This document shows positions 1 to 14,951 of a DNA stretch of 64,000 bases, in pieces. Origin of the DNA: Patescibacteria group bacterium (lineage in GTDB: Bacteria > Patescibacteriota > Minisyncoccia > Minisyncoccales > JAHCRE01); the NCBI GenBank assembly GCA_020148055.1, contig JAHCRF010000001.1, positions 71,257-135,256 on the forward strand. Reading direction: 5' to 3'. The notes beneath the pieces are model-generated. The model worked only from the letters and a program-made list of their open reading frames with translations. It searched no databases and was not told the origin of the DNA. Made by a program: the position numbers and the translations under genes. Position 1 is the stretch's first letter. The number at the start of each line of letters is the position of its first letter.

Positions 1-1356
1 AGCGCAAGCGATCGGCCAATCTAGGGTTGCAAATGGCCAGAGAGCTGAGGAGAACCAGGTATCCAGAACATCTTTCATTCCTTTAAGCGGTATTTTATGG
101 CCCCACCAGATTTGACGAGAAACACACCAATCTCTTATATTTTTTAACCAGTTAAAATAAATTTTCTCGAAGCTTTTTGGAACAAATTTAATTTTCCTAG
201 TTTTTACCGCCAAAATTGCCAGCCTGGCTAAATCATTCATTTTTAGAAACCACTGCCAGGAAGGGATTAGTTCAATTGTAGTTTTACATCGATAGCATTG
301 AGGAACTTGATGGACATAATCTTCAATTTTTTCTAAAAAACCTTGGTTTTTTAAATCTTTAACAATCTTTTTTCTAGCTTCCGAAGAAGCCAATCCTCGA
401 TAAGGCAGAGGGACTTCTTTGGTCATTTCCCCATTCTTATCGATAACCTGGATAATTTTTAGATTGTGCAAAAGTCCAATTTCATAATCTGTCATATCAT
501 GGGCTGGGGTTATCTTTACTGCTCCTGTCCCAAATTTTAGATCAACTAATTTATCTTTAATGATGGAGATTTCTCGGCCAACCAAAGGTAAGATAACTTT
601 TTTACCAATTAAATTTTTATATCGTTTATCTTTGGGATTTACTGCCACCGCCATATCTCCAAGCATTGTCTCCGGCCTGGTCGTAGCGACAGTAATAAAT
701 TTTTGACTTTTGACTTTCGACTTTTGATTTTTGATCGGATATTTGATATACCATAATTTTCCCTCCTTTTCTTTATATTCCAGTTCTAAATCTGACAGAC
801 TGGTCTGGCATCTCGGGCACCAATTTATTACTTTTTTCCCTCGATAAATCCAACCTTTTTTATAATAATGTAAGAATGCTTTTTCTATTGCTTGGCAATA
901 TTTCTCATCCATGGTAAATCGAGTTCTTGACCAATCGCAGGAAGCCCCTAATTTCTTCAACTGATCTAAAATGACATTTCCATATTTTTTCTTCCATTGC
1001 CAAACTCTTTTTAAAAATTTTTCTCGCCCTAAATCAAAACGAGTTTTTTGTTCTTTTTTTAACTCTTTTTCTACTCTCGCCTGGGTGGCAATACCAGCAT
1101 GATCGATCCCCGGGAGCCAGAGGGTTCTAAAACCTTGAAGACGTTTCCAACGGATTAAGATATCCTGGACAAGGGTATTTAGAGCGTGACCCATATGAAG
1201 AGAACCAGTAATATTTGGCGGAGGAATCAAAATTGTGTAAGATTTTTTTCTTTCCCCCGGTAGATTATCAGGATTAAAAAAACCAGATCTCAGCCAGAGA
1301 TTATAGATTTGACCCTCTACTTTTTTTGGAGCATAGACTTTTGCTAACTTTTTCAT
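1..1356 (-). CDS. valS: valyl-tRNA synthetase, N-terminal part (gene runs off the window start)
   Basis: Absent from the ORF track because there is no stop in the window. Reverse translation from ATG at 1356 gives MKKLAKVYAPKKVEGQIYNLWLRSGFFNP...PPPNITGSLHMGHALN (HIGH motif)...DVLDTWFSSALWPFATLDWP. Confidence 0.85.
   Translation of the reverse strand, partial: MKKLAKVYAPKKVEGQIYNLWLRSGFFNPDNLPGERKKSYTILIPPPNITGSLHMGHALNTLVQDILIRWKRLQGFRTLWLPGIDHAGIATQARVEKELKKEQKTRFDLGREKFLKRVWQWKKKYGNVILDQLKKLGASCDWSRTRFTMDEKYCQAIEKAFLHYYKKGWIYRGKKVINWCPRCQTSLSDLELEYKEKEGKLWYIKYPIKNQKSKVKSQKFITVATTRPETMLGDMAVAVNPKDKRYKNLIGKKVILPLVGREISIIKDKLVDLKFGTGAVKITPAHDMTDYEIGLLHNLKIIQVIDKNGEMTKEVPLPYRGLASSEARKKIVKDLKNQGFLEKIEDYVHQVPQCYRCKTTIELIPSWQWFLKMNDLARLAILAVKTRKIKFVPKSFEKIYFNWLKNIRDWCVSRQIWWGHKIPLKGMKDVLDTWFSSALWPFATLDWPIACA
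701..735. repeat. five-heptamer array (ttttgac ttttgac tttcgac ttttgat ttttgat) inside valS
   Basis: Direct reading. Translated on the minus strand as ...KNQKSKVKSQKF... just before the conserved ATTRPETMLGD. Confidence 0.85.
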
Positions 1357-1425
1357 GCTCAATTATTATACCACGCAATAATCTCAAAACTTAAATATTC
1401 AATTTGAAGATAAAAATTTTTAAAT

Positions 1426-2694
1426 TTAACTTATTCTTAAATTCGCATCAGCTTCAATATCAGGGGCCCGCCAAAGGCGGGAAGGTGGTCGGGACGCGAG
1501 GCCTTCTCGTGAAACGGGAGGCCCCGTCCTTGGGCGGGTCGGAGTCCAGGCCTTAGTTTCTTTTCTGAGATAACGAAAATAAGCAGCTACTGCCACCATA
1601 ACGGCATTATCAGTACATAAAATTTTTGGTGGAACCAAAAATTTAATCGTTAATCGCTGGTTTTTAATTGCTAATTGAAATTGTTTTCTTAATTCATTAT
1701 TGGCAGCCACCCCTCCACCAAGGATAATCATTCCGGCTTTATATTTTCTTGCTGCCTGGATGGTTTTATGAATTAAAACGTCAACTATTGCCTGTTGGAC
1801 CTCGGTAGACATTTCCTGGATAAATTTTTGCTTTTTGCGTTCTGTTTTCTGTTTTTTGATTTTATATAAGACCGCGGTTTTCAGACCAGAAAAACTGAAA
1901 TCAAAATTTTTTTGGTGAATCATTGGCCTCGGTAATTGAATATTGAATATTGAATATTGAATATTGGATTTTAATTGAGCGGCAAGCCGTTCAATGGCCG
2001 GTCCTCCTGGGTAATCCATTCCTAAAATTCTGGCTACTTTGTCAAAACATTCACCAGCAGCATCATCTCGAGTTTCACCAAGGATTTTGTATTCTCCGTA
2101 ATTTTTCATTAAAATTAACTGGGTATGACCGCCGCTTACCACTAAACAAACTGCCGGAAACGAAAACTTTAAACTTGAACCAACCAAGTTGGCGAAAATG
2201 TGAGCTTCGATATGGTTTACTGGGATTATTGGTAGTTCCCAAGAAAAAGCTAAAGCTTTGGCAAAATTTACCCCTACCCACAAGCAAGGTTCTAACCCTG
2301 GCCCCATAGTCACGGCAATTAGATCAATTTTTGGTTTCCTGTAATTTCTTAAGAATTCTTTTAACTCCTTTAAAAGATATTCTTCTCGTTTGAATATTTC
2401 TTCTAATACTGGATACTTGATACTTAATAGTTGATGCTTATCATTTTTTTTAAGCGATTTTGCTTTTTTTAACGCCCTTTTTAAAACAGGAATCAAATTT
2501 CGTTGGTGCTCTCTTTTAGCTAAGGTTGGATAGACTCCTCCATATTTTCTGTGAATTTTTATCTGAGAAGAGATAATATCAGACAGAATATTAATTTTCA
2601 TCCGTCTAAATCCGCGTTGTAATCTACCTTTATCTACTTCTACAATCGCTATACAGGTATCGTCACATGATGTTTCGACAGCAAGAATAATCAT
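1426..2694 (-). CDS. tsaD: tRNA N6-adenosine threonylcarbamoyltransferase TsaD (Kae1/Gcp family)
   Basis: MIILAVETSCDDT, NHIEAHI, VSGGHTQL, LCTDNAVM motifs. At 422 aa it is longer than usual because of repeat inserts at 1463-1547 and 1935-1969. Confidence 0.9.
   Translation of the reverse strand: MIILAVETSCDDTCIAIVEVDKGRLQRGFRRMKINILSDIISSQIKIHRKYGGVYPTLAKREHQRNLIPVLKRALKKAKSLKKNDKHQLLSIKYPVLEEIFKREEYLLKELKEFLRNYRKPKIDLIAVTMGPGLEPCLWVGVNFAKALAFSWELPIIPVNHIEAHIFANLVGSSLKFSFPAVCLVVSGGHTQLILMKNYGEYKILGETRDDAAGECFDKVARILGMDYPGGPAIERLAAQLKSNIQYSIFNIQLPRPMIHQKNFDFSFSGLKTAVLYKIKKQKTERKKQKFIQEMSTEVQQAIVDVLIHKTIQAARKYKAGMIILGGGVAANNELRKQFQLAIKNQRLTIKFLVPPKILCTDNAVMVAVAAYFRYLRKETKAWTPTRPRTGPPVSREGLASRPPSRLWRAPDIEADANLRIS
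1463..1547 (+). repeat. GC-rich hairpin element family A, copy 1 (in frame near the 3' end of tsaD, antisense to the host)
   Basis: 85 nt, about 87% identical by eye to 28032-28115. It is a GC island in AT-rich DNA and encodes ...TPTRPRTGPPVSREGLASRPPSRLWRAP... of TsaD. Confidence 0.9.
1935..1969. repeat. five-heptamer array (attgaat x4 + attggat) inside tsaD
   Basis: Direct reading. Encodes ...SNIQYSIFNIQ... upstream of the conserved FDFSFSGLKTAV. Confidence 0.85.
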
Positions 2695-2780
2695 AGAACT
2701 ATGAATTAAGAATAATGAATCATGAATAATAAAGAAAATAAGTTTCTCGCATAATTCATAATTCCTAATTCCTGATTCAT
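2693..2780. repeat. composite palindrome: inverted heptamer arrays (..tatgaat taagaat aatgaat catgaat / ataattc ataattc ctaattc ctgattc) around a short core
   Basis: Direct reading. Lies in the tsaD / tRNA-Glu spacer. Same 'gaat/attc' word family as 30476-30556, 37402-37510 and 48315-48401. Confidence 0.75.
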
Positions 2781-2833
2781 TTTAACGTTTGTCTTGCCTT
2801 TTTTCAATTTTTTAATTAAAATGATGATAGTTT

Positions 2834-2905
2834 GGCCTCGTCGTCTAGTGGTTAGGACAAGGGGCTTTCAATCCCTAAACACGGGTTCGATTCCCGTCGA
2901 GGCCA
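2834..2905 (+). tRNA. tRNA-Glu (anticodon UUC)
   Basis: Cloverleaf by hand: acceptor ggcctcg/cgaggcc, anticodon loop cuUUCaa, T-loop ttcgatt. No encoded CCA. Track ORF 2794 reads through it. Confidence 0.85.
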
Positions 2906-2913
2906 CTATTTTT

Positions 2914-4488
2914 ATGAAGGATTATTATCTTAAAGTTAACAAGGCTTCTGATCTTAAAGATAAACAAGAAAGAATAATTTTTCGTATTTTAGAGATTTTG
3001 CCTGGTTTTTTAAGCTGGGCAATTTTACTTTTAGTTATCATTTTATCTTGGCAAAAGCCGATTTTGGTAGCTGTCTTTATCATCTTTTTTGTAATTTTTT
3101 GGTTATTTAGAACAATCTACTTTTCATTTCATCTCCGGGCTGGCTATCAAAAAATGAAAGAACACGAAAATATTGATTGGCTAGCAAAGCTTAATCAACT
3201 GAGAGATAGAAACTGGAAAGATATCTATCATTTAATAGTCTTACCAATGTATAAAGAGCCTTTAGGAATTATTAAGGAAACCTTTAAAGCCTTAGAAAAT
3301 ACTGATTATCCTAAAGATAAAATGATTGTAGTTTTAGCTTGTGAGGAAAGAGCTGGAGAGGAAGCAAAAGAAACTGCCAGGATTATTGAAAAAGAATTTG
3401 CCAATAAATTTTTCAAATTTTTAATCACTTTTCATCCTCCAGATTTACCCGGAGAGATTGCTGCTAAAAGCTCAAATGAGACCTTTGGGGTAAAAAAAGC
3501 CAAGGAATTGATTATTGATCCATTTAAAATTCCTTATCAAAATATAATTTTTTCTTCTTTAGATGCCGATACTAAAATTTTTCCAAGATATTTTAGTTGT
3601 CTTACTTATCATTATTTAACCTCAAAAAACCCAACTAGAACTAGTTTTCAACCCATCCCTCTTTTTATTAATAATATCTGGCAGGCCCCTGGTATTTCTC
3701 GAGTTTTTTCCTTTTCCTCAACCTTTTGGCATACTATTAATCAGCAAAGGCCAGAAAAATTGATTACTTTCTCTTCCCATTCAATGAGTTTTTTAGCCTT
3801 AGTTGATACTGGATTCAAACAGACCAATGTAGTTTCTGATGACTCCAGAATTTTTTGGCAATGTTTTTTAAAATACAACGGAGACTATAAGGTTCAGCCT
3901 ATTTTTTATCCGGTTTCAATGGATGCTAATGTTTCTCGGAGTTTCTTTAGAACCTTAATCAATATCTACAAACAACAAAGAAGGTGGGCTTATGGAGTAG
4001 GGGATATCCCTTATTTTCTTTTTGGTTTTTTTAAAAATAAAAAAATCCCAATCTCAAAAAAATTTTCTTTAGGATTTGAGTTAATTGAAGGACACTTGTC
4101 TTGGGCTACTGCCTCGTTTTTAATTTTTCTATTAGGCTGGGTACCTTTAGTTTTAGGAGGAGAGGAGTTTAACCAGACCCTAATTTCTTATAATTTACCC
4201 TTGATAACCAGAAATATTTTAACTTTAGCAATGGTAGGCCTAACCGGATCTATCTATTTTAGTCTTAATTTACTCCCTCCTAAACCCCCTGAATATGGTC
4301 GGCTTAAATATTTATTTTTTGCTTTTCAATGGTTTTTAATTCCCTTAACAATGATATTTTTTGTTTCCCTACCAGCTTTAGATGCTCAGACGAGATTGAT
4401 GTTAGGGAAATATATGGGTTTTTGGCCGACTGAGAAAATTCGAAGGAATCTTACAAATTACGAATTTCCTCGAATTACGAATTCGTAA
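2914..4488 (+). CDS. membrane-embedded processive family-2 glycosyltransferase (cellulose/chitin-synthase-like)
   Basis: Start moved to ATG 2914, downstream of the tRNA. Has N- and C-terminal TM segments, VLPMYKEP, SSLDADT and QQRRW (QxxRW) motifs. Confidence 0.7.
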   Translation: MKDYYLKVNKASDLKDKQERIIFRILEILPGFLSWAILLLVIILSWQKPILVAVFIIFFVIFWLFRTIYFSFHLRAGYQKMKEHENIDWLAKLNQLRDRNWKDIYHLIVLPMYKEPLGIIKETFKALENTDYPKDKMIVVLACEERAGEEAKETARIIEKEFANKFFKFLITFHPPDLPGEIAAKSSNETFGVKKAKELIIDPFKIPYQNIIFSSLDADTKIFPRYFSCLTYHYLTSKNPTRTSFQPIPLFINNIWQAPGISRVFSFSSTFWHTINQQRPEKLITFSSHSMSFLALVDTGFKQTNVVSDDSRIFWQCFLKYNGDYKVQPIFYPVSMDANVSRSFFRTLINIYKQQRRWAYGVGDIPYFLFGFFKNKKIPISKKFSLGFELIEGHLSWATASFLIFLLGWVPLVLGGEEFNQTLISYNLPLITRNILTLAMVGLTGSIYFSLNLLPPKPPEYGRLKYLFFAFQWFLIPLTMIFFVSLPALDAQTRLMLGKYMGFWPTEKIRRNLTNYEFPRITNS

Positions 4489-4512
4489 TTAGTTTAGATT
4501 CGTAATTCGTAG
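4455..4512. repeat. 'cgaat/attcg' word palindrome; perfect 18-nt palindrome aattacgaattcgtaatt at 4473-4490
   Basis: Direct reading. Overlaps the last codons and stop of the GT gene (peptide ..YEFPRITNS*). Sits between convergent GT and recG, so it is a likely bidirectional terminator. Related to 52212-52278. Confidence 0.75.
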
Positions 4513-4515
4513 AGG

Positions 4516-6711
4516 TTATTCTAAATGGATTCTTTCTCGAAACTTCTCTACTCTTCCCCTTAATAAGGGATATTTTTTTAATTCAGGGTCCTCTTCTAAA
4601 ATTTCTTTAGCCGCCTTTCTAGTTTTCTCAACTAAGAATATATCTTTCAAAGCTGACATTGCTAAATCAGGAATTCCCCATTGTCTTTGACCAAAAAAAT
4701 CACCAGGGCCTCGAATTCCCAAATCTTTTTCAGCTAACTCAAAACCATTTTCAGAAGAAATCAAAGCTTTCAATCGTTGATGAGTTTTCTTAGCTGGAGA
4801 GTCAGTGAATAAAAAGCAAAAAGATTGATATTTTGATCTTCCTACTCTTCCCCGAAATTGATGGAGCTGCGCTAGCCCAAATCTTTCTGCTCCCTCAATC
4901 ATCATTACCGTGGCATTAGGAACATCGATCCCCACTTCAATTACTGAGGTTGAGACTAAAATGTCAATCTTTTTACCCCTTCCGGTTTGTGCAGAAAAAT
5001 GTTTCATTATCTTCTCTTTTTCTTTTGTAGTCATTTTCCCGTGTAACATTCCAACTTTTAAATCAGGGAAAACAATTTTTGATAGTTTTTGATATTCTTC
5101 TTTTACTGCCCTTACCTCAGCCCAGCTTGAAATTTCTTTTTCTATTTTTTCCTTATCACTAGGTTCAATCCTTGGGCAAATAACAAAAACCTGTCTTCCT
5201 TTTTTAACAACAGAGCGTATAAAATTATAAGCAGCCTTACGATTTCCCGGGGCAATCACCTTAGTGACGATTTTTTTCCTTCCCTTCGGCAATTCATTAA
5301 TTAAAGAAAGATCAAGATCACCGTAAATAGTAAGAGCCAAAGTCCTTGGAATTGGGGTAGCGGTCATTGATAATAAATGGGGAATTATTCTTGTTGCTTG
5401 CCCGCCTGCCGGCGAGGCTGGTTGCTGGTTGCTAGTTGCTAACTTTGCCCTTTGTTCCACTCCAAACCGATGCTGCTCATCCAGGATAACCAGAGCCAAT
5501 TTTCCAAAGCGCACTTTTTCTTGAATTAAGGCGTGAGTACCAATTAAAAGATCAATCTCTTCTTTTTTTAATTTTTCTAAAAGTTTTTCTCGAGAAATTT
5601 TGATAACTTTATTTTTTCTGTCGCCGAAAGCGACTCCCCGGAGGGTTGCTCTTTTAGAAAAAATTCTATTTTCTTTCCCGGTTAAAAGACCAATATTTAA
5701 ATTAAATTTTTTTAAAAGTTTTGAAATCTCCTGAAAATGTTGCTTAGCTAGGATTTCAGTTGGAGCCATAAAAGCCACTTGGAAACCTTGTTTTATTACA
5801 TTTAAAGCAGCTAATACAGCCACCACTGTTTTCCCTGAACCAACATCGCCTTCTAAAAGTCTGTTCATCGGTCTTGGTTTTTCGAGGTCTTTTAGAATCT
5901 GCCAGGCTGATTTTTTTTGGGCATTAGTTAATTTGAAAGGTAAGCTTTTAACAAAATTCTTAATTAACTGGGGATGAAAAGGGATTGGAATTGCTCTTTC
6001 TTTTGAGATTTTTAATTTCTCTCTTAAAACAAAAAGAGAAATAAAAAAAAGCTCCTCAAAAGAAAATCTTTTCTGAGCCTTTTTGGCTAAGGTTAAGGAA
6101 TCTGGGAAATGAATCTGCCAGATAGCTCTTTGGATTGGCAAAATTCGAGAATCTCTAATTACTTTTCCTGGTAGGGGTTCGCGAATTTTCTTTTTAAACT
6201 CAACCAAAAGGGGTCTTAGAATAAATCTTAACCATCTTGAAGACAATCCTTCAGTTTCGGGATAAACAGGGACAATTCTTCCGGTATGAATTAGACTTGT
6301 AGTTTGACTGATTTTCTCATGAGCTGGATTTGATAGATAAAGTCCTTTGTCTCCGAGAGTTATTTTTCCAGCTAAACATAAATTATCTCCTGATTTTAAA
6401 ACTTTTATTAAATAAGGTTGGTTAAACCAGATTACCTTTATTGCTCCTGATTTGTCTTTGACTATTGCCTGGGTTAAAATCATTCTTTTTTTCCAGGTTC
6501 TGATGTTTTCAATTTCTAGAATTTTTACCTTAATACAACAGGTTTCATTAAGTTTTACTTGAGATATCGGAATTATATTTGAAAAATCCTCATAGCGATG
6601 AGGAAAATGATAGAGAAGATCCCTGATTGTCTTTATTCCCAATTTCTTCAACCTCTTTTGGTAGCTGAGACCTACTCGAGGCAGACTCTCAATTGGAGTA
6701 GAAAGATTCAT
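4516..6711 (-). CDS. recG: ATP-dependent DNA helicase RecG
   Basis: Start moved to ATG 6711 (MNLSTPIESLPRVG), below the tRNA. Has DVGSGKT Walker A, LDEQHRFG, MTATPIPRTL and QFRGRVGRS. Contains inserts B and E. Confidence 0.9.
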   Translation of the reverse strand: MNLSTPIESLPRVGLSYQKRLKKLGIKTIRDLLYHFPHRYEDFSNIIPISQVKLNETCCIKVKILEIENIRTWKKRMILTQAIVKDKSGAIKVIWFNQPYLIKVLKSGDNLCLAGKITLGDKGLYLSNPAHEKISQTTSLIHTGRIVPVYPETEGLSSRWLRFILRPLLVEFKKKIREPLPGKVIRDSRILPIQRAIWQIHFPDSLTLAKKAQKRFSFEELFFISLFVLREKLKISKERAIPIPFHPQLIKNFVKSLPFKLTNAQKKSAWQILKDLEKPRPMNRLLEGDVGSGKTVVAVLAALNVIKQGFQVAFMAPTEILAKQHFQEISKLLKKFNLNIGLLTGKENRIFSKRATLRGVAFGDRKNKVIKISREKLLEKLKKEEIDLLIGTHALIQEKVRFGKLALVILDEQHRFGVEQRAKLATSNQQPASPAGGQATRIIPHLLSMTATPIPRTLALTIYGDLDLSLINELPKGRKKIVTKVIAPGNRKAAYNFIRSVVKKGRQVFVICPRIEPSDKEKIEKEISSWAEVRAVKEEYQKLSKIVFPDLKVGMLHGKMTTKEKEKIMKHFSAQTGRGKKIDILVSTSVIEVGIDVPNATVMMIEGAERFGLAQLHQFRGRVGRSKYQSFCFLFTDSPAKKTHQRLKALISSENGFELAEKDLGIRGPGDFFGQRQWGIPDLAMSALKDIFLVEKTRKAAKEILEEDPELKKYPLLRGRVEKFRERIHLE
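5383..5439 (-). repeat. element family B, copy 1 (gcaacNN heptamers + GC hairpin), in frame in recG
   Basis: Sense strand gcaactagcaaccagcaaccagcctcgccggcaggcgggcaagcaacaagaataatt is about 90% identical to 50750-50807. Encodes ATSNQQPASPAGGQATR. Confidence 0.9.
5620..5649 (+). repeat. element family E, copy 1 (gtcgccgaaagcgactcc hairpin), in frame in recG
   Basis: The gtcgc/gcgac stem with its flank resembles 48138-48156 (gtcgccgtaaggcgactcc). Encodes ..TLRGVAFGDRK... Confidence 0.7.
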
Positions 6712-6722
6712 AAGAATTGTGA

Positions 6723-6794
6723 TGCCCTCGAGAGGAGTCGAACCTCTATTTGAAGCTCCGCAAGCTCCTGTTTTATCCATTAAACTACGAGGGC
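6723..6794 (-). tRNA. tRNA-Arg (anticodon GCG)
   Basis: Hand fold: acceptor gccctcg/cgagggc, anticodon stem ggagc/gcttc, loop uuGCGga, T-loop ttcgact. No CCA encoded. Confidence 0.75.
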
Positions 6795-6870
6795 AAGCTT
6801 TTTAAATTTAACATAAATTTTTCTTTACTTCAAGTTGACTTAATTAATTTTATCCATTAAAATTAAAAGA

Positions 6871-6958
6871 GGAGGAGTACTCAAATGGTTACGAGAACAG
6901 TTTGCTAAACTGTAACCGTCTAAACAGCGGTTTGTGGGTTCGAGTCCCACCTCCTCCG
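6871..6958 (+). tRNA. tRNA-Ser (anticodon GCU), long variable arm
   Basis: Acceptor ggaggag/ctcctcc, anticodon loop uuGCUaa, long extra arm, T-loop ttcgagt. Confidence 0.85.
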
Positions 6959-6963
6959 CCTGA

Positions 6964-7051
6964 GGTGGGCTGTGCCGAATTTGGTCAAGGCACCAGTCTT
7001 GAAAACTGGGGTCCCGAAAGGGACGTGCAGGTTCGAGTCCTGCGCCCACCG
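6964..7051 (+). tRNA. tRNA-Ser (anticodon UGA), long variable arm
   Basis: Acceptor ggtgggc/gcccacc, anticodon loop cuUGAaa, extra arm ggtcccgaaagggac, T-loop ttcgagt. Confidence 0.85.
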
Positions 7052-7060
7052 CAATTTTTT

Positions 7061-7084
7061 AAAAACCGGCGAAGCCGGTTTTTT
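7061..7084. terminator. bidirectional intrinsic terminator (aaaaa-ccggc-gaa-gccgg-tttttt)
   Basis: 5-bp GC stem flanked by an A-run and a T-run, between the tRNA-Ser pair (+) and comF (-). Confidence 0.7.
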
Positions 7085-7115
7085 ATTCCTAATTCTGGAT
7101 TCATAATTCTTAATT
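7081..7115. repeat. five-heptamer half-element (ttttatt cctaatt ctggatt cataatt cttaatt)
   Basis: Direct reading. Same unit family as the right arm at 37476-37510. Abuts the terminator hairpin. Confidence 0.7.
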
Positions 7116-7119
7116 TTAA

Positions 7120-7842
7120 TTATTCTCTTGCTACTACTACCCCCTGGATTTCTTTAGCTCCTGATTTTTTTAAAACTCGAGCAGCCTCTTCCATAGTCGC
7201 CCCACTTGTATAAATATCATCAACTAATAAAATTCTCTTCTCAAAAATCTTATTTTGGTTCTGGCAAGAAAATGTTTCTTTAACATTTTCTTTTCTTTCC
7301 CTTTCTGAAAGTTTGACCTGAGGTAAAGTTTCTTTTATTTTTATCAAGCAATTTAAAACTAAAGGAATCTCTAAAATTTTTGAAAGTTCTTTACTAATCT
7401 CAGTTGTCTGGTTAAATCCTCGCCATCTTAACCTCTTTTCATTTAGAGGAATAGGGATTAAAATAAAGTTGGAGAAATTTGGTTTGTTGTTAAGTAATTG
7501 AAAATGAGTTATTATTAAAGAAGCTAAAGGTTTTGCCAGCTCTTTTATAAAAGGATTATATTTAAATTTCTGGATTAATTCTTTTATCAATGGATTTTGG
7601 TAGGAGAGAGCAAAATAGAGAGTACTGAGAATTTTTGGTTGACATTCAGGACACTTCTCTCCTTCTAGTAATCTTTTTGGCTTCTTGCAAAGGCAATATT
7701 GATATTGAGAAATTTCCAGGATAGATTGACAATCTTCACAAAGATAGCTTCCCCCCCGGCCGCAACTAAAACAAGATCTAGGGAAAAGGATATCTAATAA
7801 AAATTTTTTAATTTTTTCCATCATATTTACAGTTCTTTCCAA
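7120..7842 (-). CDS. comF: ComF-family competence protein / phosphoribosyltransferase-fold
   Basis: N-terminal Cys-rich zinc ribbons (CFSCG...CEDC, CPEC) and a C-terminal PRTase motif LLVDDIYTSGATM. Confidence 0.75.
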   Translation of the reverse strand: MERTVNMMEKIKKFLLDILFPRSCFSCGRGGSYLCEDCQSILEISQYQYCLCKKPKRLLEGEKCPECQPKILSTLYFALSYQNPLIKELIQKFKYNPFIKELAKPLASLIITHFQLLNNKPNFSNFILIPIPLNEKRLRWRGFNQTTEISKELSKILEIPLVLNCLIKIKETLPQVKLSERERKENVKETFSCQNQNKIFEKRILLVDDIYTSGATMEEAARVLKKSGAKEIQGVVVARE

Positions 7843-7899
7843 ATTGAGTTATAATTAACTTAGAGATTGTTTTTTAGTCTAAAGGTGTTATTATAAAAG

Positions 7900-9015
7900 A
7901 TGGTCCGATTTCCTTTTAAAATAGGTCTTAAGAGTTGCCTAGGGATAGATATTGGGACTTCCGGGATAAAAATTGTTCAATTATCACTCCAAAGAGAAAG
8001 AATAAAATTAGAAAAATATGGTGAGGCAACTGCTCGAATTTTTTATGAGAAACCTTTCAGAACTTTTGAGAAAAGTACCCTTTTACTATCTAATCAAGAT
8101 ATCGCTCGGGCAATTTTAGCTATTTGTAAAGAGGCAAAAATTTCTGAAAGGAAAGCCATTTTTGCAATCCCTGATTTTTCAAGTTTTTTTACCAGTTTTA
8201 ATCTACCGGCAATGACCAGAGAAGAGGTTTCTCAGGCAGTCAGATTTGAAGCTCGTCATCATATTCCCTTACCCTTAGCTGAAGTGAGTTTAGATTGGTC
8301 AATAATTGAAGGAGAATTAAGTGATCGAAAAAAAGTTCCTCTAAAGATCCTATTGGCGGCTGTACCTAACAATGTTATTAATCAATATCGCCAAATAGTT
8401 GTTTTGTCAAATCTTGAACTTAAGGCTTTAGAAGCTGAAGTATTTGGGCTATTAAGATCTTTGATTGGAGATGATAAGAGAGTGATTATCTTGTTAGATA
8501 TTGGAGCTCAAAGCACAAGCTGCAATATTATTGATCAGGGAATTTTAAAAGTCAGTCATAGTTTTGATGTAGCTGGAAATGAATTAACTCAAGTTTTAGC
8601 CAAGGCATTAAATGTTGATTATTTAACAGCGGAAAATTTAAAAAAAATTCATGGCCTAAAATTTTTGGTTTCCGGTGTACCTCCTATTGAAAAGAATCAA
8701 GAGATTCCCTTAATGACCAAGAAGGTTGGAGAGATTTTAAGACCTTTAATTGACCTAATTTTAACTGAAACAAAAAAGACTTCCCGAAGTTTTTATCAAA
8801 CTAAAGGGAAAAAAGTTCAAAAAGTGATTATTGCCGGCGGTTCGGCCTTACTCCCTGGTCTTAAAGAATATTTTTTCAAATCCCTTAAACAAGAAGTAGA
8901 GATTGCCAATCCTTTTTCTGACATTTTATATTCTCCAATTCTTGAAGAGACTTTGAAAAAAATGGGACCCTCTTATGCCATAGCCGTAGGTATGGCCCTG
9001 AGGGGACTCGAATAA
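7900..9015 (+). CDS. pilM: type IV pilus assembly protein PilM (actin-like ATPase fold)
   Basis: GIDIGTSGIKIVQL, DIGAQST and IIAGGSALLPGL motifs. First gene of the pilMNO order. Confidence 0.85.
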   Translation: MVRFPFKIGLKSCLGIDIGTSGIKIVQLSLQRERIKLEKYGEATARIFYEKPFRTFEKSTLLLSNQDIARAILAICKEAKISERKAIFAIPDFSSFFTSFNLPAMTREEVSQAVRFEARHHIPLPLAEVSLDWSIIEGELSDRKKVPLKILLAAVPNNVINQYRQIVVLSNLELKALEAEVFGLLRSLIGDDKRVIILLDIGAQSTSCNIIDQGILKVSHSFDVAGNELTQVLAKALNVDYLTAENLKKIHGLKFLVSGVPPIEKNQEIPLMTKKVGEILRPLIDLILTETKKTSRSFYQTKGKKVQKVIIAGGSALLPGLKEYFFKSLKQEVEIANPFSDILYSPILEETLKKMGPSYAIAVGMALRGLE

Positions 9016-9016
9016 A

Positions 9017-9544
9017 ATGGCAATAGAAATTATTCCAAAAAAAGTAGTTGGACCTTCCCCTTGGCAAAATACCTTGCTTTATTTTTTCATTTCTTTACTT
9101 TTGGTTTCCATTTTGGGTTACTTTGCCTTAGATTATTTTGTCAAAGAAGCTGATCGGACTCTTCTGGAGTTGAAAGAGGAGTTAATTGAAGCAAGATCTC
9201 CTCAACAAGTTGCCTTGGAAAAAGAAATTTCGGATTATCGAGAAAAAATCGAAGATTTCTCTTCTTTACTTGCTAGCCACCAAAAGAGTTCAAATTTTTT
9301 TGATTTCCTTGAGGAAATTACCCATCCTAAGGTTTTCTTTTCTGAGCTAAATTTGGATACTAAAGGAAATCGAGTTAGACTTTATGGTCAGGCTGATAGT
9401 TTTCAGACCCTGGGCCAACAATTGCTGATTTTTCAAAACTCTGAATTTATTCGGAATTTAAGTTTACCAGAAATTAGAATTAGAGAAGAGGGAAAAATCG
9501 GATTCATTTTTGATTTTTCTCTTAATCAAGAATTGTTTCAATAA
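9017..9544 (+). CDS. pilN: PilN-like pilus assembly protein (single N-terminal TM)
   Basis: 175 aa, one TM then a coiled coil. Called on position after pilM. Confidence 0.6.
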   Translation: MAIEIIPKKVVGPSPWQNTLLYFFISLLLVSILGYFALDYFVKEADRTLLELKEELIEARSPQQVALEKEISDYREKIEDFSSLLASHQKSSNFFDFLEEITHPKVFFSELNLDTKGNRVRLYGQADSFQTLGQQLLIFQNSEFIRNLSLPEIRIREEGKIGFIFDFSLNQELFQ

Positions 9545-9547
9545 ATT

Positions 9548-10105
9548 ATGTCTCGATTAACTTTAATTATTATTTGTTTTTTCCTCATTTTATTAATAGG
9601 CCTTTTCTTAATCTGGCCAAAATATCAAAACTTGGGAGCTCTTAAACTTGAAATTGAAGGAAAGGAAATTGAATTACAATACTTGGAAGAATATTTTCAA
9701 AGGCTCGATCAGCTTTCCCAAGAGCTTAAAAAATATGAGGCTCAACTTTCAAAGATTGATTTTGCCCTTCCCTCTGATTCTTCTTTAACTTTGCTTTCTT
9801 TAATAAATTTCCTTCAAAAAGCGAGCTCCCAAAATGGTTTAGTTTTTAAAGAATTGGGATCGTTTTCAATAATCTTACCGAAACCACCAGCCGAAGCTTC
9901 TGGTCTTCAGGAATCTCAACTTTCTTCTAAAATCAAAGAGATCTATCTTGGCTTTGAAGTTGCTGGTTCTTATTCTGCTTTGAAAAATTTCCTTAATACC
10001 TTGGAAAAAAGTGCCAAACTTATCGAAGTAGAAGAGGTTTCTTTTTCTTTTGAAGAGGAGGAGATTTTTTCTTTTATTTTTAAAATAAAAACTCATTCTT
10101 ATTAA
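9548..10105 (+). CDS. pilO: PilO-like pilus assembly protein
   Basis: 185 aa, N-terminal TM plus coiled coil. Called on position after pilN. Confidence 0.6.
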   Translation: MSRLTLIIICFFLILLIGLFLIWPKYQNLGALKLEIEGKEIELQYLEEYFQRLDQLSQELKKYEAQLSKIDFALPSDSSLTLLSLINFLQKASSQNGLVFKELGSFSIILPKPPAEASGLQESQLSSKIKEIYLGFEVAGSYSALKNFLNTLEKSAKLIEVEEVSFSFEEEEIFSFIFKIKTHSY

Positions 10106-10111
10106 AGATCT

Positions 10112-10378
10112 ATGGCTGTTACTTTTATTGAATCAAGAAAAAGGCAGAAATATCTAATTTTTATCTTAGTTGTGGTGATTTTTGGAATTGCTTTCCTAAT
10201 CTGGAATTATTTTTCAGCAAAACCAAAGCTTCCCTTCTTTAAACCTCTGCCGCCACCTGAAATAAAAATAAATTTTGAAATATTAAAAAGTCCAACTTTG
10301 GACGAACTTCAGTTATTTGAAGAGATTTTACCCTTTGAAGAGGAAATTGGTCGAGAAAATCCCTTTACTCCCTATTAG
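10112..10378 (+). CDS. small single-TM protein of the pilus locus (function unknown)
   Basis: 88 aa ORF packed tightly between pilO and pilB. One hydrophobic helix (YLIFILVVVIFGIAFLIW). Confidence 0.5.
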   Translation: MAVTFIESRKRQKYLIFILVVVIFGIAFLIWNYFSAKPKLPFFKPLPPPEIKINFEILKSPTLDELQLFEEILPFEEEIGRENPFTPY

Positions 10379-10432
10379 GTCTTGAGAAAAATCTTCATCT
10401 AATATCTATTACCTAATATCTAAATTTAGATT

Positions 10433-12160
10433 ATGACGTTAGTTCGCCAATTGATTCAAAAAAAGATCTTAAATAAAGAAAAAGCCACTTCTCTAGAATT
10501 TGAAATTAAAAGCTCGGGAAGAAAAGAGGAAGAGGTGATTTTAGAGAAAAAAATAGTTTCTGAAAGTTTTTTATTTAAGTTAAAGAGCGAAAATCTTAAA
10601 ATACCTTTGAAAGAAGTTCTTCCTGAAGATGTAATTTTCAAGGTTTTGGAGCGCATTCCTGAGGAATCAGCCAAGTATTACAAGATGATACCAATCCGTC
10701 AAAGAGACGATCTGTTGGAAGTCGGAATGGTCTATCCAGAGGATTTAAAAGCTCAAGAAGCTCTCAAATTCTTAACTCGTCAGGAAAAATTGTCTTATGA
10801 AGTCTTTTTGATTACCCCTACTACTTTTAATAATCTCTTGAAGAAATACCGAACTTTGAAAAAAGAAGTCACTAAGGCTTTAGAGGAGTTAGAAGAAGAA
10901 ATAAAGGTAGAGAAAGTTAAAGCTAGGCCTTTGGCTCCTGCTGAATTCGAAAGATTGGTTGAAGAGGCTCCAATTTCTAAAGTAGTGGCCGTGATGTTGA
11001 GGCACGCAGTAGAAGGAGATGCTTCTGATATTCATATCGAACCAACCAGAGATAAATTAAAAGTTCGATTCCGGTTAGATGGAGTTTTACATTCTTCTCT
11101 CCTCTTACCTATTAGAATCCATCAAGCTGTGGTAGCCAGAGTTAAAATTCTATCTAATCTTAAGATTGATGAAATGAGAGTGCCTCAAGACGGTAGATTT
11201 TCGACTAGAATAGATGGTCAAGACATTGATTTCCGGGTTTCCACTTTTCCGACTACCGAAGGAGAAAAAGTGGCAATCAGAGTTTTAGACCCTTCAAAAG
11301 GAATGTTGAGCTTGGAAGAATTGGGGATGGTTGGTAGAAATCTCGAGGTGATAAAGGAAGCGATAAAAAAACCCTATGGGATGATTTTAGCTACTGGTCC
11401 CACCGGGACAGGGAAAACCACTACCTTGTACGCTATTTTAAAAATTTTAAATCAGGAAGGAGTAAATATTGTTGCTTTAGAAGATCCGGTTGAATATTAT
11501 ATTGGAGGGATTAATCAGTCCCAGATGAGACCGGATATCGGTTATACTTTTGCCACCGGTTTGCGGCATGTTGTCAGACAGGATCCTGATATCATTATGG
11601 TTGGAGAGATTCGAGATGAGGAAACAGCTTCCTTAGCTACCCATGCTGCCTTAACTGGCCATGTTGTTTTATCTACCTTGCATACTACCAATGCCTTAGG
11701 AACAATCCCTCGACTTATTGATTTAGGAATTCAACCTTATTTAATTCCCCCCACTATAAGTATCTCTTTAGCCCAGAGATTGGTTAGGAGATTGTGTCCA
11801 GAATGTAAAAAGAAAGTCAAACCAAAATTAAAAATCAGAGATTTAATTTTGAAAGAAACTGAAGCTCTTTCTCTAACAGCTAAAAAAGATCTTAAGATCT
11901 CGAAAAGCTTCTCAATTTTTGAGCCTAAGGGTTGTAAAAAATGTCGTTTTGAAGGTTATTCTGGTCGAATTGGGCTTTTTGAAGTTTTAGTAATGACCGA
12001 TGAACTTTCTGAGCTAATCTTGAAGGAACCTTCAGAAGTTAAGATTGCTGAGGAGGCCGAAAACCAGGGAATGATTACAATGAAACAAGACGGTATTTTA
12101 AAAGTTTTAGATGGCATCACTTCAATTGAAGAAGTTTTGAGAGTGGCTGAGGAGAAATAA
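10433..12160 (+). CDS. pilB: type IV pilus assembly (extension) ATPase PilB/GspE family
   Basis: N-terminal GSPII-type domain, Walker A GPTGTGKTTT, Asp/His boxes and a tetracysteine CPEC...CKKC. Confidence 0.9.
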   Translation: MTLVRQLIQKKILNKEKATSLEFEIKSSGRKEEEVILEKKIVSESFLFKLKSENLKIPLKEVLPEDVIFKVLERIPEESAKYYKMIPIRQRDDLLEVGMVYPEDLKAQEALKFLTRQEKLSYEVFLITPTTFNNLLKKYRTLKKEVTKALEELEEEIKVEKVKARPLAPAEFERLVEEAPISKVVAVMLRHAVEGDASDIHIEPTRDKLKVRFRLDGVLHSSLLLPIRIHQAVVARVKILSNLKIDEMRVPQDGRFSTRIDGQDIDFRVSTFPTTEGEKVAIRVLDPSKGMLSLEELGMVGRNLEVIKEAIKKPYGMILATGPTGTGKTTTLYAILKILNQEGVNIVALEDPVEYYIGGINQSQMRPDIGYTFATGLRHVVRQDPDIIMVGEIRDEETASLATHAALTGHVVLSTLHTTNALGTIPRLIDLGIQPYLIPPTISISLAQRLVRRLCPECKKKVKPKLKIRDLILKETEALSLTAKKDLKISKSFSIFEPKGCKKCRFEGYSGRIGLFEVLVMTDELSELILKEPSEVKIAEEAENQGMITMKQDGILKVLDGITSIEEVLRVAEEK

Positions 12161-12166
12161 AATTAT

Positions 12167-12532
12167 ATGAGGTCAATTTTATTGGTTGAGGACGATCCTT
12201 TTATCATTGATATTTATACTACTAAATTGAAAGAGGCCGGATTTTTTATTGAGATAGCCGAAGATGGTGAAGAGGCCTTGAAAAAAATAAGAGAAAAAAA
12301 ACCCGACCTTTTAGTTTTAGATATTGTTCTGCCTAACATTGATGGATGGGAACTTCTTAAGAGAGTTAGAACCGAATTAGGTTGCGAAGATTTAAAAGTA
12401 GTTGTTTTTTCCAATCTCAGCCAAAAGGCAGACGTTGAAAAAAGTTTGGAATTTGGAGTAATAAAATATTTCATTAAAGCGGATTTTACTCCAAGTGAAG
12501 TGGTTGAAGAAATAAAGAAAATACTAAAATAA
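12167..12532 (+). CDS. stand-alone response-regulator receiver (CheY-like)
   Basis: 121 aa. Has the LLVEDD acidic pocket, phospho-acceptor context LLVLDIVLP, and S..K later. Confidence 0.85.
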   Translation: MRSILLVEDDPFIIDIYTTKLKEAGFFIEIAEDGEEALKKIREKKPDLLVLDIVLPNIDGWELLKRVRTELGCEDLKVVVFSNLSQKADVEKSLEFGVIKYFIKADFTPSEVVEEIKKILK

Positions 12533-12540
12533 TTTTAATT

Positions 12541-13608: not shown

Positions 13609-13614
13609 AATAAA

Positions 13615-14826: not shown

Positions 14827-14856
14827 AAGTTTTCCACAGTTCGACTTATAAAGATT

Positions 14857-14865
14857 TGTTATAAT
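14857..14865 (+). promoter_or_regulatory. extended -10 (TGtTATAAT) upstream of the major pilin gene
   Basis: Motif read directly. No good -35 was seen. Confidence 0.35.
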
Positions 14866-14894
14866 AAAAATTGAGCCCTTCTAATGGAACTGAA

Positions 14895-14933: not shown

Positions 14934-14951
14934 TAATGACTAATAATTAAA

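Follow-up and report, generated by a model that had tools for sequence, protein, structure and literature searches.

The window analysed here, a stretch of 64,000 nt from a Patescibacteria group bacterium, holds tandem arrays of 7-nt units in its intergenic spacers and inside several of its genes. These arrays are long heptanucleotide SSRs, of the same class as cyanobacterial STRR and Xanthomonas (GGGANTN)n. A known phenomenon, that of the heptamer microsatellites of Xanthomonas and cyanobacteria, is thereby met in a new lineage; the organism is a Parcubacteria-type bacterium of the Candidate Phyla Radiation (CPR), with a GC content of ~35%. With a little better than even confidence, the arrays are thought to have been born by slippage and to be tolerated in spacers and protein loops. 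A literature search turned up no paper on heptamer repeats in Patescibacteria.

Period-seven arrays in the window and across the clade

An array was called in the window where self-similarity at a lag of 7 nt reached at least 16/21. This gives 22 period-7 regions, against a mean of 0.65 (0-3 each) in 20 third-order Markov simulations. At a cut-off of 17/21 the window has 21 regions of period 7 and 11 of period 14, and each of the other periods from 3 to 13 has 0-1. In 2.1 Mb of sequence from 160 relatives period 7 is the commonest non-triplet period, with 161 arrays; periods 5, 8, 10 and 11 have 7, 31, 13 and 20 respectively. Head-to-tail tandem 7-nt units in excess of chance are the defining feature of long heptanucleotide SSRs (LSSR/STRR type). 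The non-coding bias of that class is also present: the ~10% of sequence that lies outside long open frames holds 47% of the arrays, and coding copies sit at loop insertions.

No motif is common to the arrays, 183 of which yield 100 distinct consensus words, and the words vary from genome to genome among the relatives; diversity is given here as plain word counts, single-linkage clustering having merged nearly all words into one uninformative cluster. Among 110 arrays tested across the clade, 28 have an inverted partner (at least 17/21), compared with 2 that have a direct partner and 1 in the control. The inverted pairs often enclose a terminator or a GC-rich hairpin. At the gathering score, an Rfam search of the window returned tRNAs only and no match to a structured RNA family. 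A terminator consensus scan of positions 1-20000 found 18 against 17.1 expected in shuffles, and missed the obvious hairpin at 7062-7085.

Arrangement of the arrays around genes

A preliminary description of this DNA had reported paired heptamer arrays at seven places and a half-copy at another, and all eight coordinates hold what was described. Arrays in both orientations are present at 7/7 of the listed sites, and an eighth pair lies in frame within uvrC. Two close arrays of the same word on opposite strands, as at these eight window sites, are the type of pairing seen in Xanthomonas. The sites are as follows.

Site A, left arm: 2696-2730, plus strand; five GAAT-n-A-n heptamers, 2 nt away from the start codon of minus-strand tsaD
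Site A, core: 2731-2750; AAAGAAAATAAGTTTCTCGC, with no more than a weak GAAA/TTTC hairpin
Site A, right arm: 2751-2778, plus strand; four n-T-n-ATTC heptamers (inverted GAAT words), with tRNA-Glu next at 2834
Site B: 4455-4512; CGAATT palindrome of irregular spacing, between the ends of an unknown ORF and recG
Half site: 7062-7116; terminator-like hairpin AAAAACCGGCGAAGCCGGTTTTTT, then four or five ATTC heptamers as its only arm
Site C, left arm: 30472-30506, plus strand; five GAAT heptamers, with the rpoB stop TGA (30478-30480) in the second unit
Site C, centre: 30507-30518; A-rich, no hairpin
Site C, right arm: 30519-30553, plus strand; five ATTC heptamers, the last of them 7 nt short of the rpoC ATG (30561)
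Site D, left arm: 37402-37436, plus strand; five GAAT heptamers directly 3' of the recA stop (37399-37401)
Site D, core: 37455-37479; bidirectional hairpin resembling an intrinsic terminator, AAAAA-CTGCCC-CCAA-GGGCAG-TTTTTT
Site D, right arm: 37477-37504, plus strand; four ATTC heptamers that run into the 3' end of rpsR (37504-37701, minus strand)
Site E, left arm: 37706-37740, plus strand; five AGTAT-nn heptamers, 4 nt from the rpsR start (37701, minus strand)
Site E, core: 37753-37769, minus strand; hairpin CTGAG-N7-CTCAG, then AGGTTTTCTTTCTT on the minus strand (the ssb/rpsR sense), terminator-like
Site E, right arm: 37770-37797, plus strand; four ATAC-nnn heptamers overlapping the ssb stop (37796-37798)
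Site F, left arm: 43923-43957, plus strand; five AGTAT-nn heptamers, 6 nt from the start of rnj (RNase J; 43916, minus strand)
Site F, centre: 43958-43975; A/T only
Site F, right arm: 43976-43996, plus strand; three degenerate ATAC-nnn units, then ATGCGAG ATGCGTA
Site G: 52212-52278, plus strand; CGAAT palindrome filling the groES|groEL spacer, a near-perfect hairpin of ~30 bp
Site H: 48318-48401; five GAAT units and, across a T-rich centre, four ATTC units, in frame in uvrC (minus strand)

Every GAAT of site A stands in the same phase modulo 7. The words of the half site are GAAT when read on the minus strand, where they lie between the comF stop and the hairpin. After the right arm of site F and its two ATGC units comes tRNA-Leu (44014-44102, minus strand). 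The ATTCGTA-type right arm of site C is common to relatives L082, L087, L110 and L126. Site B is placed where the unknown ORF (stop at 4486-4488) and recG (4516) come to their ends, and its centre is a perfect 18-nt palindrome, AATTACGAATTCGTAATT (4473-4490). At site G the words are spaced 7/11/8 on the left and, in mirror image, 8/11/7 on the right. Because of this irregular word spacing, 4455-4512 and 52212-52278 are true palindromes and not regular heptamer arrays. The three word families proposed at the outset are real, but 'cgaat' contains the GAAT core and does not form regular heptamer arrays. A single unbroken period-7 array, switching word midway, was considered for each palindrome and rejected: the phase offsets between arms at six sites are 2, 1, 1, 3, 0 and 3.

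The gene neighbours rpoB, rpoC, recA, rpsR, ssb, rpsF, groES and groEL agree with Pfam or with the contig's precomputed annotation, and arrays do lie between rpoB|rpoC, groES|groEL, ssb|rpsR and recA|rpsR. Stop codons lie inside arms, as had been claimed, for rpoB, rpsR, ssb and the ORF called the 'GT gene', and the recA stop can be added to these. No Pfam match was found for this 'GT gene' (~2950-4488), a long ORF that overlaps tRNA-Glu. Start codons lie 1-8 nt beyond an arm at tsaD, rpoC, rpsR, rnj and groEL. Right arms were also considered as a source of promoters for leaderless genes: a TATAAT-like hexamer 3-14 nt upstream was found for 0/5 genes after arrays, compared with 15/38 window genes. 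No shared A-rich/T-rich polarity of left and right arms was seen across 17 sites judged by eye, both polarities being present.

A core hairpin had been described as part of the pattern. It is present at 37402-37510 (a terminator with a T run) and at 37705-37797 and is weak at 2693-2780, but the centres at 30476-30556 and 43922-44010 are merely A-rich, with no terminator-type hairpin in sites C and F. The GC-rich stem-loop and U tract of an intrinsic terminator occur in the site D core, on the minus strand of site E and at 7062-7085 in the half site.

Location in spacers alone, as first described, proved too narrow, since arrays also lie inside genes: there is the inverted pair in uvrC, and there are solo arrays in the coding sequences of valS, tsaD (three), recG, pilD (two), uvrC and uvrA. 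Site H lies within a linker of UvrC, where its translation includes WESRVRNQESRTKKKKPYNSSFIIHNSKFQ and where UvrC of five relatives has ~18-26 fewer residues. The stretch 48318-48401 is thus an in-frame palindromic repeat missing from these five relatives, as in an insert of the Rickettsia palindromic element (RPE) type; the conserved element consensus that is the second defining feature of RPE was not found in it. The uvrC copy has GAATGAT at a place where a consensus unit, GAATTAT, would give a sense-strand TAA, as read from the translation and not from a computed codon phase. The solo arrays, with two short intergenic ones, include the following.

valS: 695-737, minus strand; (GTCAAAA), ~five units, encoding KNQKSKVKSQK
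tsaD: 1824-1868, minus strand; GCAAAAA-type, a 5-residue insertion relative to PDB TsaD
tsaD: 1928-1976, minus strand; ATTGAAT x4.6, units 100% identical, a 7-residue insertion
tsaD: 2404-2439, minus strand; AGTAT family, within a 41-residue insertion
pilD (prepilin peptidase): 16466-16510, plus strand; GTTTACT x4.4, units 100% identical
pilD: 16601-16647, plus strand; ATTC family
uvrC: 47510-47556, minus strand; (GCAAAAA), encoding KIKKQKAKSKKK, a 3-residue insertion relative to PDB UvrC
Intergenic: 10396-10424, plus strand; ATCTAAT x4, upstream of pilB
Intergenic: 17543-17579; CAATCAA, upstream of a pilin gene

The coding arrays coincide with small loop insertions in the proteins. Genes of the window also share longer repeats: a 65-nt sequence is identical in rpoC and uvrA, and one of ~95 nt is common to rpoB and tsaD.

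Folding, word conservation and turnover

The preliminary description had made its case depend on the arms being more self-complementary than shuffled sequence. They are: on both RNA strands the seven spacers fold better than dinucleotide shuffles, with z-scores of -2.4 to -7.1, among them -4.4 at site B and -7.1 (-33.3 kcal/mol) at site G. As single-stranded DNA, six of the listed spacers have z-scores of -2.5 to -5.1 and site F (43917-44002) only -0.9. On the transcribed strand of site H, in uvrC, no fold better than shuffles was found (z -0.7).

The idea of purpose-built hairpins of ~35 bp was not supported in that form, as the arms of the GAAT and AGTAT families match the arms of other sites as well as they match their own partner. 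For GAAT arms, complementarity is 21.25/28 within a site and 23.2/28 between sites; for AGTAT arms, it is 18-19/24 within and 17-20/24 between. When the order of units was permuted within arms, 71-90% of the permuted sequences folded with no loss of stability, at 6/6 sites. Since the arms are interchangeable and tolerate permutation, pairing derives only from the shared 4-5 nt core of the word, with mismatches in every heptad. The hairpin potential of the GAAT and AGTAT sites would thus be largely a by-product of word sharing and not tuned per site. Arm pairing of the site-specific kind expected of a selected hairpin was absent from these sites and found only at the CGAAT palindromes, sites B and G, where the match is 19/24 within a site against 12-13/24 between sites. 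The palindromes at 4455-4512 and between groES and groEL are the best candidates for selected hairpins.

GAAT-n-A-n is the dominant word of the window and is present at no fewer than six independent places. Its positions 1-7 have non-consensus counts of 5, 4, 5, 6, 24, 9 and 24 (chi-square p = 6e-8). Substitutions are concentrated at positions 5 and 7, and as neutral decay after slippage would be even, this points to constraint on the word, to exchange between arrays, or to both. Inside each arm the 7-nt phase is strict, without internal indels, and adjacent units are often identical.

A search for strain-level relatives of the window organism gave a best RecA identity of 84%, and turnover, which is rapid at orthologous spacers, was followed among other members of the clade. 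Net indels were computed per gap cluster; BLAST splits a single 7-nt indel into gaps of 2 + 5. Relatives L025 and L134 (~96% identical) differ in the array after recA by one GGATATT unit, in one arm only (+7 nt). This is the one clean event, with a probable whole-unit length change between L046 and L067 besides. In two pairs of near-identical genomes (99.8-99.95%) a change of array length was looked for and none was found. The hairpin in the core of site D, the recA terminator, is orthologous and kept in the window, L002, L003, L008, L009 and L010, and its flanks differ: they hold no array, or a GAAT, AGTAT or TTACTGG array, on one side or both. One-armed sites occur at 7082-7116 in the window and also in L002, L009 and L056.

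At rpoB|rpoC, 78 relatives have spacers of up to 225 nt, and of at most 30 nt in 49/78; at the low end the two genes apparently overlap, in 14/78, of which 13 have the same computed offset. Some of the short spacers are already 2-3 heptamers (e.g. L134, L053). Given the short spacers in 49/78 relatives, the 80-nt palindrome of the window is a recent, lineage-specific addition. The description of these loci as operons that are normally co-transcribed has to be read with these lengths in mind, rpoB and rpoC being adjacent without a gap, or overlapping, in many relatives.

Origin of the arrays and their relation to known repeats

Cyanobacterial STRR are a class of heptanucleotide repeats. The arrays described here are like STRR and other long heptanucleotide SSRs in their lineage-specific words, their intergenic location and the proposal of slippage as origin; an inverted, dyad-centred layout and in-frame coding copies are not what the reports on those repeats stress. 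In many bacteria heptamers are the most abundant class of long SSR, for which polymerase slippage has been proposed (PMC4692102, PMC4679880), and seven is given as the favoured unit length of long SSRs (Mrazek et al. 2007, as cited in PMC4679880 and PMC4692102). In Xanthomonas, (GGGANTN)n forms 70-75 convergent pairs among ~185 arrays (Rehm et al. 2015, PMC4692102); the arrays adjoin housekeeping genes, groES included, and different species keep them at corresponding gene junctions while their length and sequence vary (PMC4692102). Like these and the GGGGA(C/T)T repeats of Nostoc, the arrays of the window are tandem heptamers of ~4 units with a strong intergenic bias, and they share with the Xanthomonas unit the conservation of positions 1-4 and 6 and the variability of positions 5 and 7 (PMC4692102). 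Unlike the Xanthomonas and Nostoc repeats, the words here are A/T-rich and belong to several families per genome, many arrays lie in coding loops, the cores are often intrinsic-terminator hairpins, and the host is a CPR bacterium of ~35% GC. The window units GAATNAN, AGTATNN and CGAATTA contain no G-tracts. As such A/T-rich words are unable to form G-quadruplexes, the G4 rationale does not transfer to them, and the 7-nt period and paired layout in Xanthomonas and Nostoc are probably not a matter of G4 chemistry either. The TAACTGA direct repeats of marine Beggiatoaceae, Cyanobacteria and Bacteroidetes (MacGregor 2015, PMC4679880) are similar in being heptamers a few nt upstream of starts, in ribosomal-protein operons and RBS-poor regions, and differ in being a single word with one indirect repeat in 170 sets, in contrast to the many words and frequent inversion seen here (PMC4679880).

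Likeness to other dispersed elements is more partial. As imperfect palindromes in intergenic spacers, also within operons, the sites recall REP/BIME and REPIN of Proteobacteria. REP elements share a conserved consensus of 20-40 nt and owe their mobility to RAYT transposases; they are able to stabilise the mRNA upstream of them and to serve as terminators. The sites here, unlike REPs, have just a 7-nt word in common and arms that are internally tandem. RPEs are dispersed elements of ~100-150 nt with conserved sequence. The uvrC copy is like them as an in-frame palindromic repeat in a surface loop or linker of a protein gene, and unlike them in having only heptamer words in common with other sites. 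The omega operators of plasmid pSM19035 consist of contiguous 7-bp units, 7-10 in a row, direct and inverted, with a known cognate protein. Contiguous heptads in both orientations, a conserved core and variable flanking positions are common to both systems; the omega operators occupy a handful of plasmid promoter and centromere sites, in contrast to the dozens of chromosomal sites and several words here.

In the explanation favoured here, arrays would arise and turn over in place as slippage during replication, or unequal exchange, adds or removes whole 7-nt units, a step that is in part observed. They would survive where selection permits: the CPR genome is compact and has few non-coding spacers, and these, with variable protein linkers, would be their refuges. 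An inverted pair could form when an array beside a dyad, such as a terminator or other hairpin, is copied to the other side by intramolecular template switching; alternatively, both flanks of a palindromic seed might expand. Each arm would then slip independently, keeping the word and scrambling the order of units. Transcripts across the spacers could fold into long stem-loops, mismatched in each heptad, which might extend terminators or serve as 3'-end barriers or processing sites; the arrays may have a regulatory role in transcripts. Several observations sit uneasily with slippage. One word dominates the window, its positional bias is unlike neutral decay, only one clean unit-indel event was found, and that template switching supplied the second arm is itself something that we infer. 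In relative L033 the period is 8 in place of 7, which is awkward for a fixed polymerase ruler. The similar copy number in both arms of a site (~4-5 each) hints at some symmetry constraint.

It is possible, though unlikely, that the sites are RNA hairpins under selection, with stem-loops kept to terminate, attenuate, process or stabilise mRNA. They might serve differential expression of rpoB/rpoC, groES/groEL and ssb/rpsR, or bring a stop codon near the next start in a genome largely without Shine-Dalgarno sites. The excess of folding over shuffles, the great preponderance of inverted over direct partners, the proximity of arms to stop and start codons and the terminator-like form of several cores are all consistent with such selection, as are the site-specific, near-perfect palindromes at B and G (the latter at -33 kcal/mol, z -7.1) and the presence of arrays with other words in the same spacers (after recA, rpoB|rpoC) of different relatives. 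Against it stand the absence of fine tuning from arm to arm in the GAAT and AGTAT families, the many relatives with no spacer at all at the same junctions, the one-armed sites, the change of copy number in one arm alone between L025 and L134, and the arrays in coding loops, which have no obvious hairpin role and no sense-strand fold. Spread of miniature mobile elements (MITE-, REPIN- or RPE-like), as non-autonomous insertions into spacers and in frame into genes, is very unlikely. One word family does occupy at least six window sites, the uvrC copy is in frame, and there are other short repeated inserts in genes (65 nt in rpoC/uvrA, ~95 nt in rpoB/tsaD), but the copies have only the 7-nt word in common and differ in cores, ends and lengths. 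Moreover, the two arms have no fixed register, spacer lengths are continuous with 2-3-unit arrays in short spacers, and one-unit indels happen. Within the 64-kb window no full-length consensus or shared ends of the MITE or REPIN kind, no RAYT and, in the annotated ORFs, no transposase domain was seen.

Binding by a protein is distinctly improbable as the explanation of the arrays. A DNA- or RNA-binding protein, one heptad per subunit, would coat them cooperatively, perhaps on the model of the ribbon-helix-helix omega repressor on direct and inverted 7-bp heptads, and the arrays would mark gene boundaries for regulation or chromosome organisation. Such binding would fit the position-specific conservation of GAAT-n-A-n (p = 6e-8), the interchangeability of arms across sites, the strict 7-nt phase without internal indels, the occurrence of both orientations and the fixing of Xanthomonas heptamers likewise at positions 1-4 and 6; genome-specific words are as expected under co-evolution with a protein. 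It is difficult to reconcile with several unrelated word families and many single-copy words in one genome, with arrays inside coding sequences, or with the gain and loss of arrays at orthologous sites between close relatives. No candidate binder gene was identified within the 64-kb window. The signature shared by the G-rich words of Xanthomonas and the A/T-rich words here motivates a bolder form of the proposal, in which a dedicated protein or machine reads heptads as words and the 7-nt period would be that of the reader and not of polymerase slippage. This is more doubtful still. If true, inverted heptad arrays would be a widespread and unrecognised boundary element, insulating or decoupling neighbours where many promoters sit directly at start codons, with the reader protein setting the word of each lineage. 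In a weaker version of this proposal, the arrays may be the clade's main route to new intergenic spacers and lysine-rich protein loops.

The arrays carry the long-unexplained excess of heptamer repeats into the CPR. On the preferred reading of slippage and tolerance, the same process would build spacers of 80-120 nt between ancestrally abutting essential genes such as rpoB/rpoC, and put short lysine-rich peptides into ValS, TsaD and UvrC and, in relatives, RpoC; in very small genomes this would be a visible origin of novelty in both genome and protein. In CPR metagenome bins, assembly errors and mis-annotated gene boundaries are likely to be concentrated at the arrays, which are likely hot spots for strain typing too.

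Period-seven arrays and their inverted pairs

A fixed-lag self-similarity scan of the window returned 21–22 period-7 regions, compared with 0–1 regions for each other period from 3 to 13; period 14, itself twice 7, returned 11. Third-order Markov simulations of the window, twenty in all, yielded an expected mean of 0.65 such regions, and the period-7 pattern is far in excess of chance. Tandem Repeats Finder, which is independent of the lag scan, reported about thirty period-7 rows; an Rfam search of the window found tRNAs and nothing else. Among the 28 window spacers of at least 40 nt, six have a lag-7 match of at least 0.5 (the background is near 0.3), and several more are intermediate.

The preliminary description placed inverted heptamer arrays in seven spacers, with a half-copy elsewhere. 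Direct reading bears this out, and the pattern extends well beyond those sites. Eight sites, the seven spacers and one inside uvrC, each pair an array with an inverted array of its own word:

2696–2778, GAAT word, 3–5 units in each arm
30472–30553 (rpoB–rpoC), GAAT word, 3–5 units in each arm
37402–37504 (recA–rpsR), GAAT word, 3–5 units in each arm
48318–48401 (inside uvrC), GAAT word, 3–5 units in each arm
37706–37797 (ssb–rpsR), AGTAT word, 3–5 units in each arm
43923–43996, AGTAT word, 3–5 units in each arm
4455–4512, CGAAT word, spacing irregular yet mirrored
52212–52278 (groES–groEL), CGAAT word, spacing irregular yet mirrored

The GAAT and AGTAT arms keep strict 7-nt phase with zero internal indels, and the phase offset between arms varies among these sites. 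The core hairpin that had been described between the arms holds for only part of the set. The recA–rpsR centre is a textbook bidirectional terminator and the ssb–rpsR centre is a terminator-like hairpin in the sense of ssb and rpsR; the tsaD–tRNA-Glu hairpin is weak, and the rpoB–rpoC and rnj–tRNA-Leu centres are only A-rich. Arms do overlap the stop codons of rpoB, rpsR, ssb and an unknown ORF, as had been noted, and that of recA as well; the start codons of tsaD, rpoC, rpsR, rnj and groEL lie 1–8 nt beyond an arm end.

Self-complementarity of the arms

The spacers had been read as palindromes, with a hairpin of about 35 bp envisaged for those within operons. As RNA, all seven are more stable than dinucleotide shuffles on both strands (z −2.4 to −7.1), and as DNA six of the eight inverted sites fold better than such shuffles. 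Since the folds beat the shuffles, the arms do carry an excess of self-complementarity, and to this extent the hairpin interpretation stands. It falters on specificity at the regular (GAAT and AGTAT) arrays. The GAAT-family unit is GAAT-n-A-n; in 46 units aligned by phase, non-consensus bases at positions 1–7 number 5, 4, 5, 6, 24, 9 and 24 (p = 6e-8). Pairing at the regular arrays derives only from the shared word core. GAAT arms match the inverted arms of other sites at 23.2 of 28 positions, against 21.25 of 28 for their own partner, and for AGTAT arms the match to other sites is likewise at least equal to that with the partner. At each of the six regular sites, 71–90% of permutations of unit order within arms gave folds of equal or greater stability, and the uvrC inverted copy on the transcribed strand folds no better than shuffles. 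On these results, no site-specific hairpin maintenance is apparent at the regular arrays; their arms show no co-evolution. Unlike these, the CGAAT arms are specifically complementary to their own partners, and these two palindromes alone make hairpin maintenance plausible.

Turnover among relatives and origin of the arrays

The recA neighbourhoods of 160 relatives (together 2.1 Mb; stretches denoted by L numbers) hold 161 arrays of period 7, compared with 7, 31, 13 and 20 for periods 5, 8, 10 and 11; periods 6, 9 and 12 are expected coding periods. The spread is thus clade-wide, and words vary by genome (100 consensus words in 183 arrays). An inverted partner matching at least 17 of 21 positions accompanies 28 of 110 arrays, against 2 for direct partners and 1 for the control, and in relatives the same order, an array followed by a terminator or GC hairpin and then an inverted array, is seen again with other words.

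The arrays are labile. The terminator after recA (AAAAACTGCCC...GGGCAGTTTTT) is kept in the window and in L002, L003, L008, L009 and L010. It is flanked by five plus four GAAT units in the window, two in L010, units on one side only in L009 and no array in L008, while L003 has AGTAT arms and in L002 TTACTGG units lie on one side. Among 78 relatives, rpoB and rpoC range from overlapping to 225 nt apart; the spacer is at most 30 nt in 49, with apparent gene overlap in 14. Some short spacers already consist of 2–3 heptamers, and an ATTCGTA-type right arm is common to the closest relatives. L025 and L134, about 96% identical, share the right arm of the array pair after recA, while their left arms are exactly one GGATATT unit apart. 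Elsewhere in this pair, a 25-nt indel (L025 9890–9914) makes or removes a perfect palindrome (GACTGTCGTCAACGAACTCGTTGACGACAGTC), with repeated TAAGAACCTGCTCGGCTTTGCTCGCAGAACCTTGA copies nearby in both genomes.

Solo arrays occur inside valS, tsaD (three), recG, pilD (two), uvrC and uvrA; in some of them all units are identical. Of the arrays in the window and relatives combined, 47% fall in the roughly 10% of sequence that is not in long open frames and 44% inside such frames, and placement follows tolerance. When TsaD and UvrC are aligned with their solved structures, and UvrC also with that of five relatives, the tsaD and uvrC arrays map to small loop insertions, the palindromic uvrC array occupying a linker about 18–26 residues shorter in those relatives. 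One unit of the uvrC copy is GAATGAT where, judging from the translation, the consensus GAATTAT would probably give a sense-strand TAA.

On the most economical reading, the arrays are heptanucleotide simple-sequence repeats. They would be born and remodelled by unit-wise slippage, with selection letting them persist in spacers and protein linkers; probably by template switching, they would be duplicated inverted around dyads, after which the arms would evolve independently. We infer slippage itself, the template-switch origin of second arms and any RNA-level effect. In many bacteria heptamers are the commonest long repeat class of this kind, with polymerase slippage as a proposed cause (Mrazek et al. 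2007, as relayed in PMC4679880 and PMC4692102). The slippage reading does not account for the way one word, GAAT-n-A-n, prevails at six or more sites of one genome with position-specific conservation; a protein that reads the word, or exchange between arrays, may thus play a part. It also sits awkwardly with L033, where period-8 arrays (ACATATAA-type) lie at 3849–3925, 4765–4793, 5908–5936 and 8514–8551, one resembling an inverted pair by eye, and no period-7 array occurs in the 13.5 kb examined.

The closest known match is (GGGANTN)n of Xanthomonas, in which positions 1–4 and 6 are conserved, arrays typically have about four units and a total of about 185 arrays includes 70–75 convergent pairs; pairs are retained across species with varying lengths, adjoin genes including groES and have no known function (PMC4692102). 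In contrast, the window arrays do not qualify as G-quadruplex formers by that paper's standard, use several words per genome and often surround terminators. Beggiatoaceae TAACTGA repeats also lie just upstream of start codons, in regions poor in ribosome-binding sites, but are direct repeats (PMC4679880). Membership of REP/REPIN, MITE or RPE families was rejected because the window copies lack a shared element consensus. A literature search returned no report of such heptamer arrays in Patescibacteria. The inverted arrays belong to a known yet unexplained kind, and they demonstrate no new mechanism. They provide a clean clade-wide case, in which arrays are seen creating spacers and protein loops, and with them G4 formation can no longer serve to explain paired heptamer arrays in general.

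Coding inserts, genes and host

Several repeats in coding sequence stand apart. The valS array (695–737, TTTTGAC/TTTTGAT) shares its word with the TTTTGAT heptad repeats of the Vibrio cholerae ctxAB promoter, probably by coincidence since the valS array is coding. A GC-rich sequence of 65 nt (…GCTTCCCCAGCCCCACCCGCCACCCATCAAAGGAAAAAAACATCTAAGGCAAAAA) is repeated with 100% identity at 31037–31101 (rpoC; in frame, 21 residues) and 49629–49693 (uvrA; a stop follows), and uvrA is apparently split into ORFs at 48826–49698 and 49958–51799. A GC-rich, hairpin-rich repeat of about 95–100 nt, reminiscent of Rickettsia palindromic elements, occurs at 1454–1561 (tsaD 3′ tail, minus strand) and 28024–28122 (rpoB), in opposite orientations relative to the host genes; the rpoB copy is in frame (residues 283–315), where five relatives' RpoB are 14–38 residues shorter. 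A third repeat, at 5388–5441 (recG, minus strand) and 50749–50800 (uvrA, plus strand), comprises (AGCAACC) heptamers around a GC hairpin, TGCCTCGCCGACAGGCGGGCA, in the same orientation relative to both genes, and links heptamer arrays with GC-rich hairpin inserts. At uvrC 48122–48166 a further GC-rich in-frame insertion (…LLKSLKESPYGDPRGGAKLSSQIPG…) is missing from relatives; the GC-rich insertions of L041 UvrC are different ones, placed elsewhere in the protein. NTCAAAA-type A-rich arrays lie at similar distances upstream of recA in L018 (4466–4494), L021 (4585–4636), L046 (3650–3688) and L082 (4321–4350). Judged by position, they probably fall in the N-terminal part of rpoC, with predicted lysine-rich peptides; the window has an A-rich insert in that part (31097–31124).

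Gene identities were confirmed by Pfam and by the annotation of an identical ENA metagenome contig: valS, tsaD, tRNA-Glu, an unknown ORF, recG, tRNAs, comF-like, a type IV pilus cluster, cinA, nadD/E, ligA, ftsW, a TPR protein, rpoB, rpoC, ftsK, recA, rpsR, ssb, rpsF, ychF, pgm, trpS-like, rnj, tRNA-Leu, gpi, SBP, uvrC, uvrA, groES, groEL and glycogen genes. RecA relatives (top identity 80–84%) place the host in Parcubacteria/Paceibacteria, near Ca. Nealsonbacteria and Wildermuthbacteria. The long ORF at 2794–4488, earlier called a GT gene, overlaps tRNA-Glu (2834–2906) at its 5′ end and has no Pfam match, even trimmed to 2950–4488. At 56958–62497, genes for a GH57 glycoside hydrolase and a kinase of the APH family lie between two glycogen/starch synthase paralogues (GT5 plus GT1 domains), a glycogen-type cluster within a reduced genome.

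The five genes directly after arrays have no TATAAT-like hexamer 3–14 nt before the ATG. Such a hexamer is found at 15 of 38 window genes, and is a perfect TATAAT at pilD, nadD/E, ftsK and pgm. Shine-Dalgarno-like motifs are rare upstream of most start codons in the window, which, together with these hexamers, suggests that many transcripts may be leaderless or near-leaderless.
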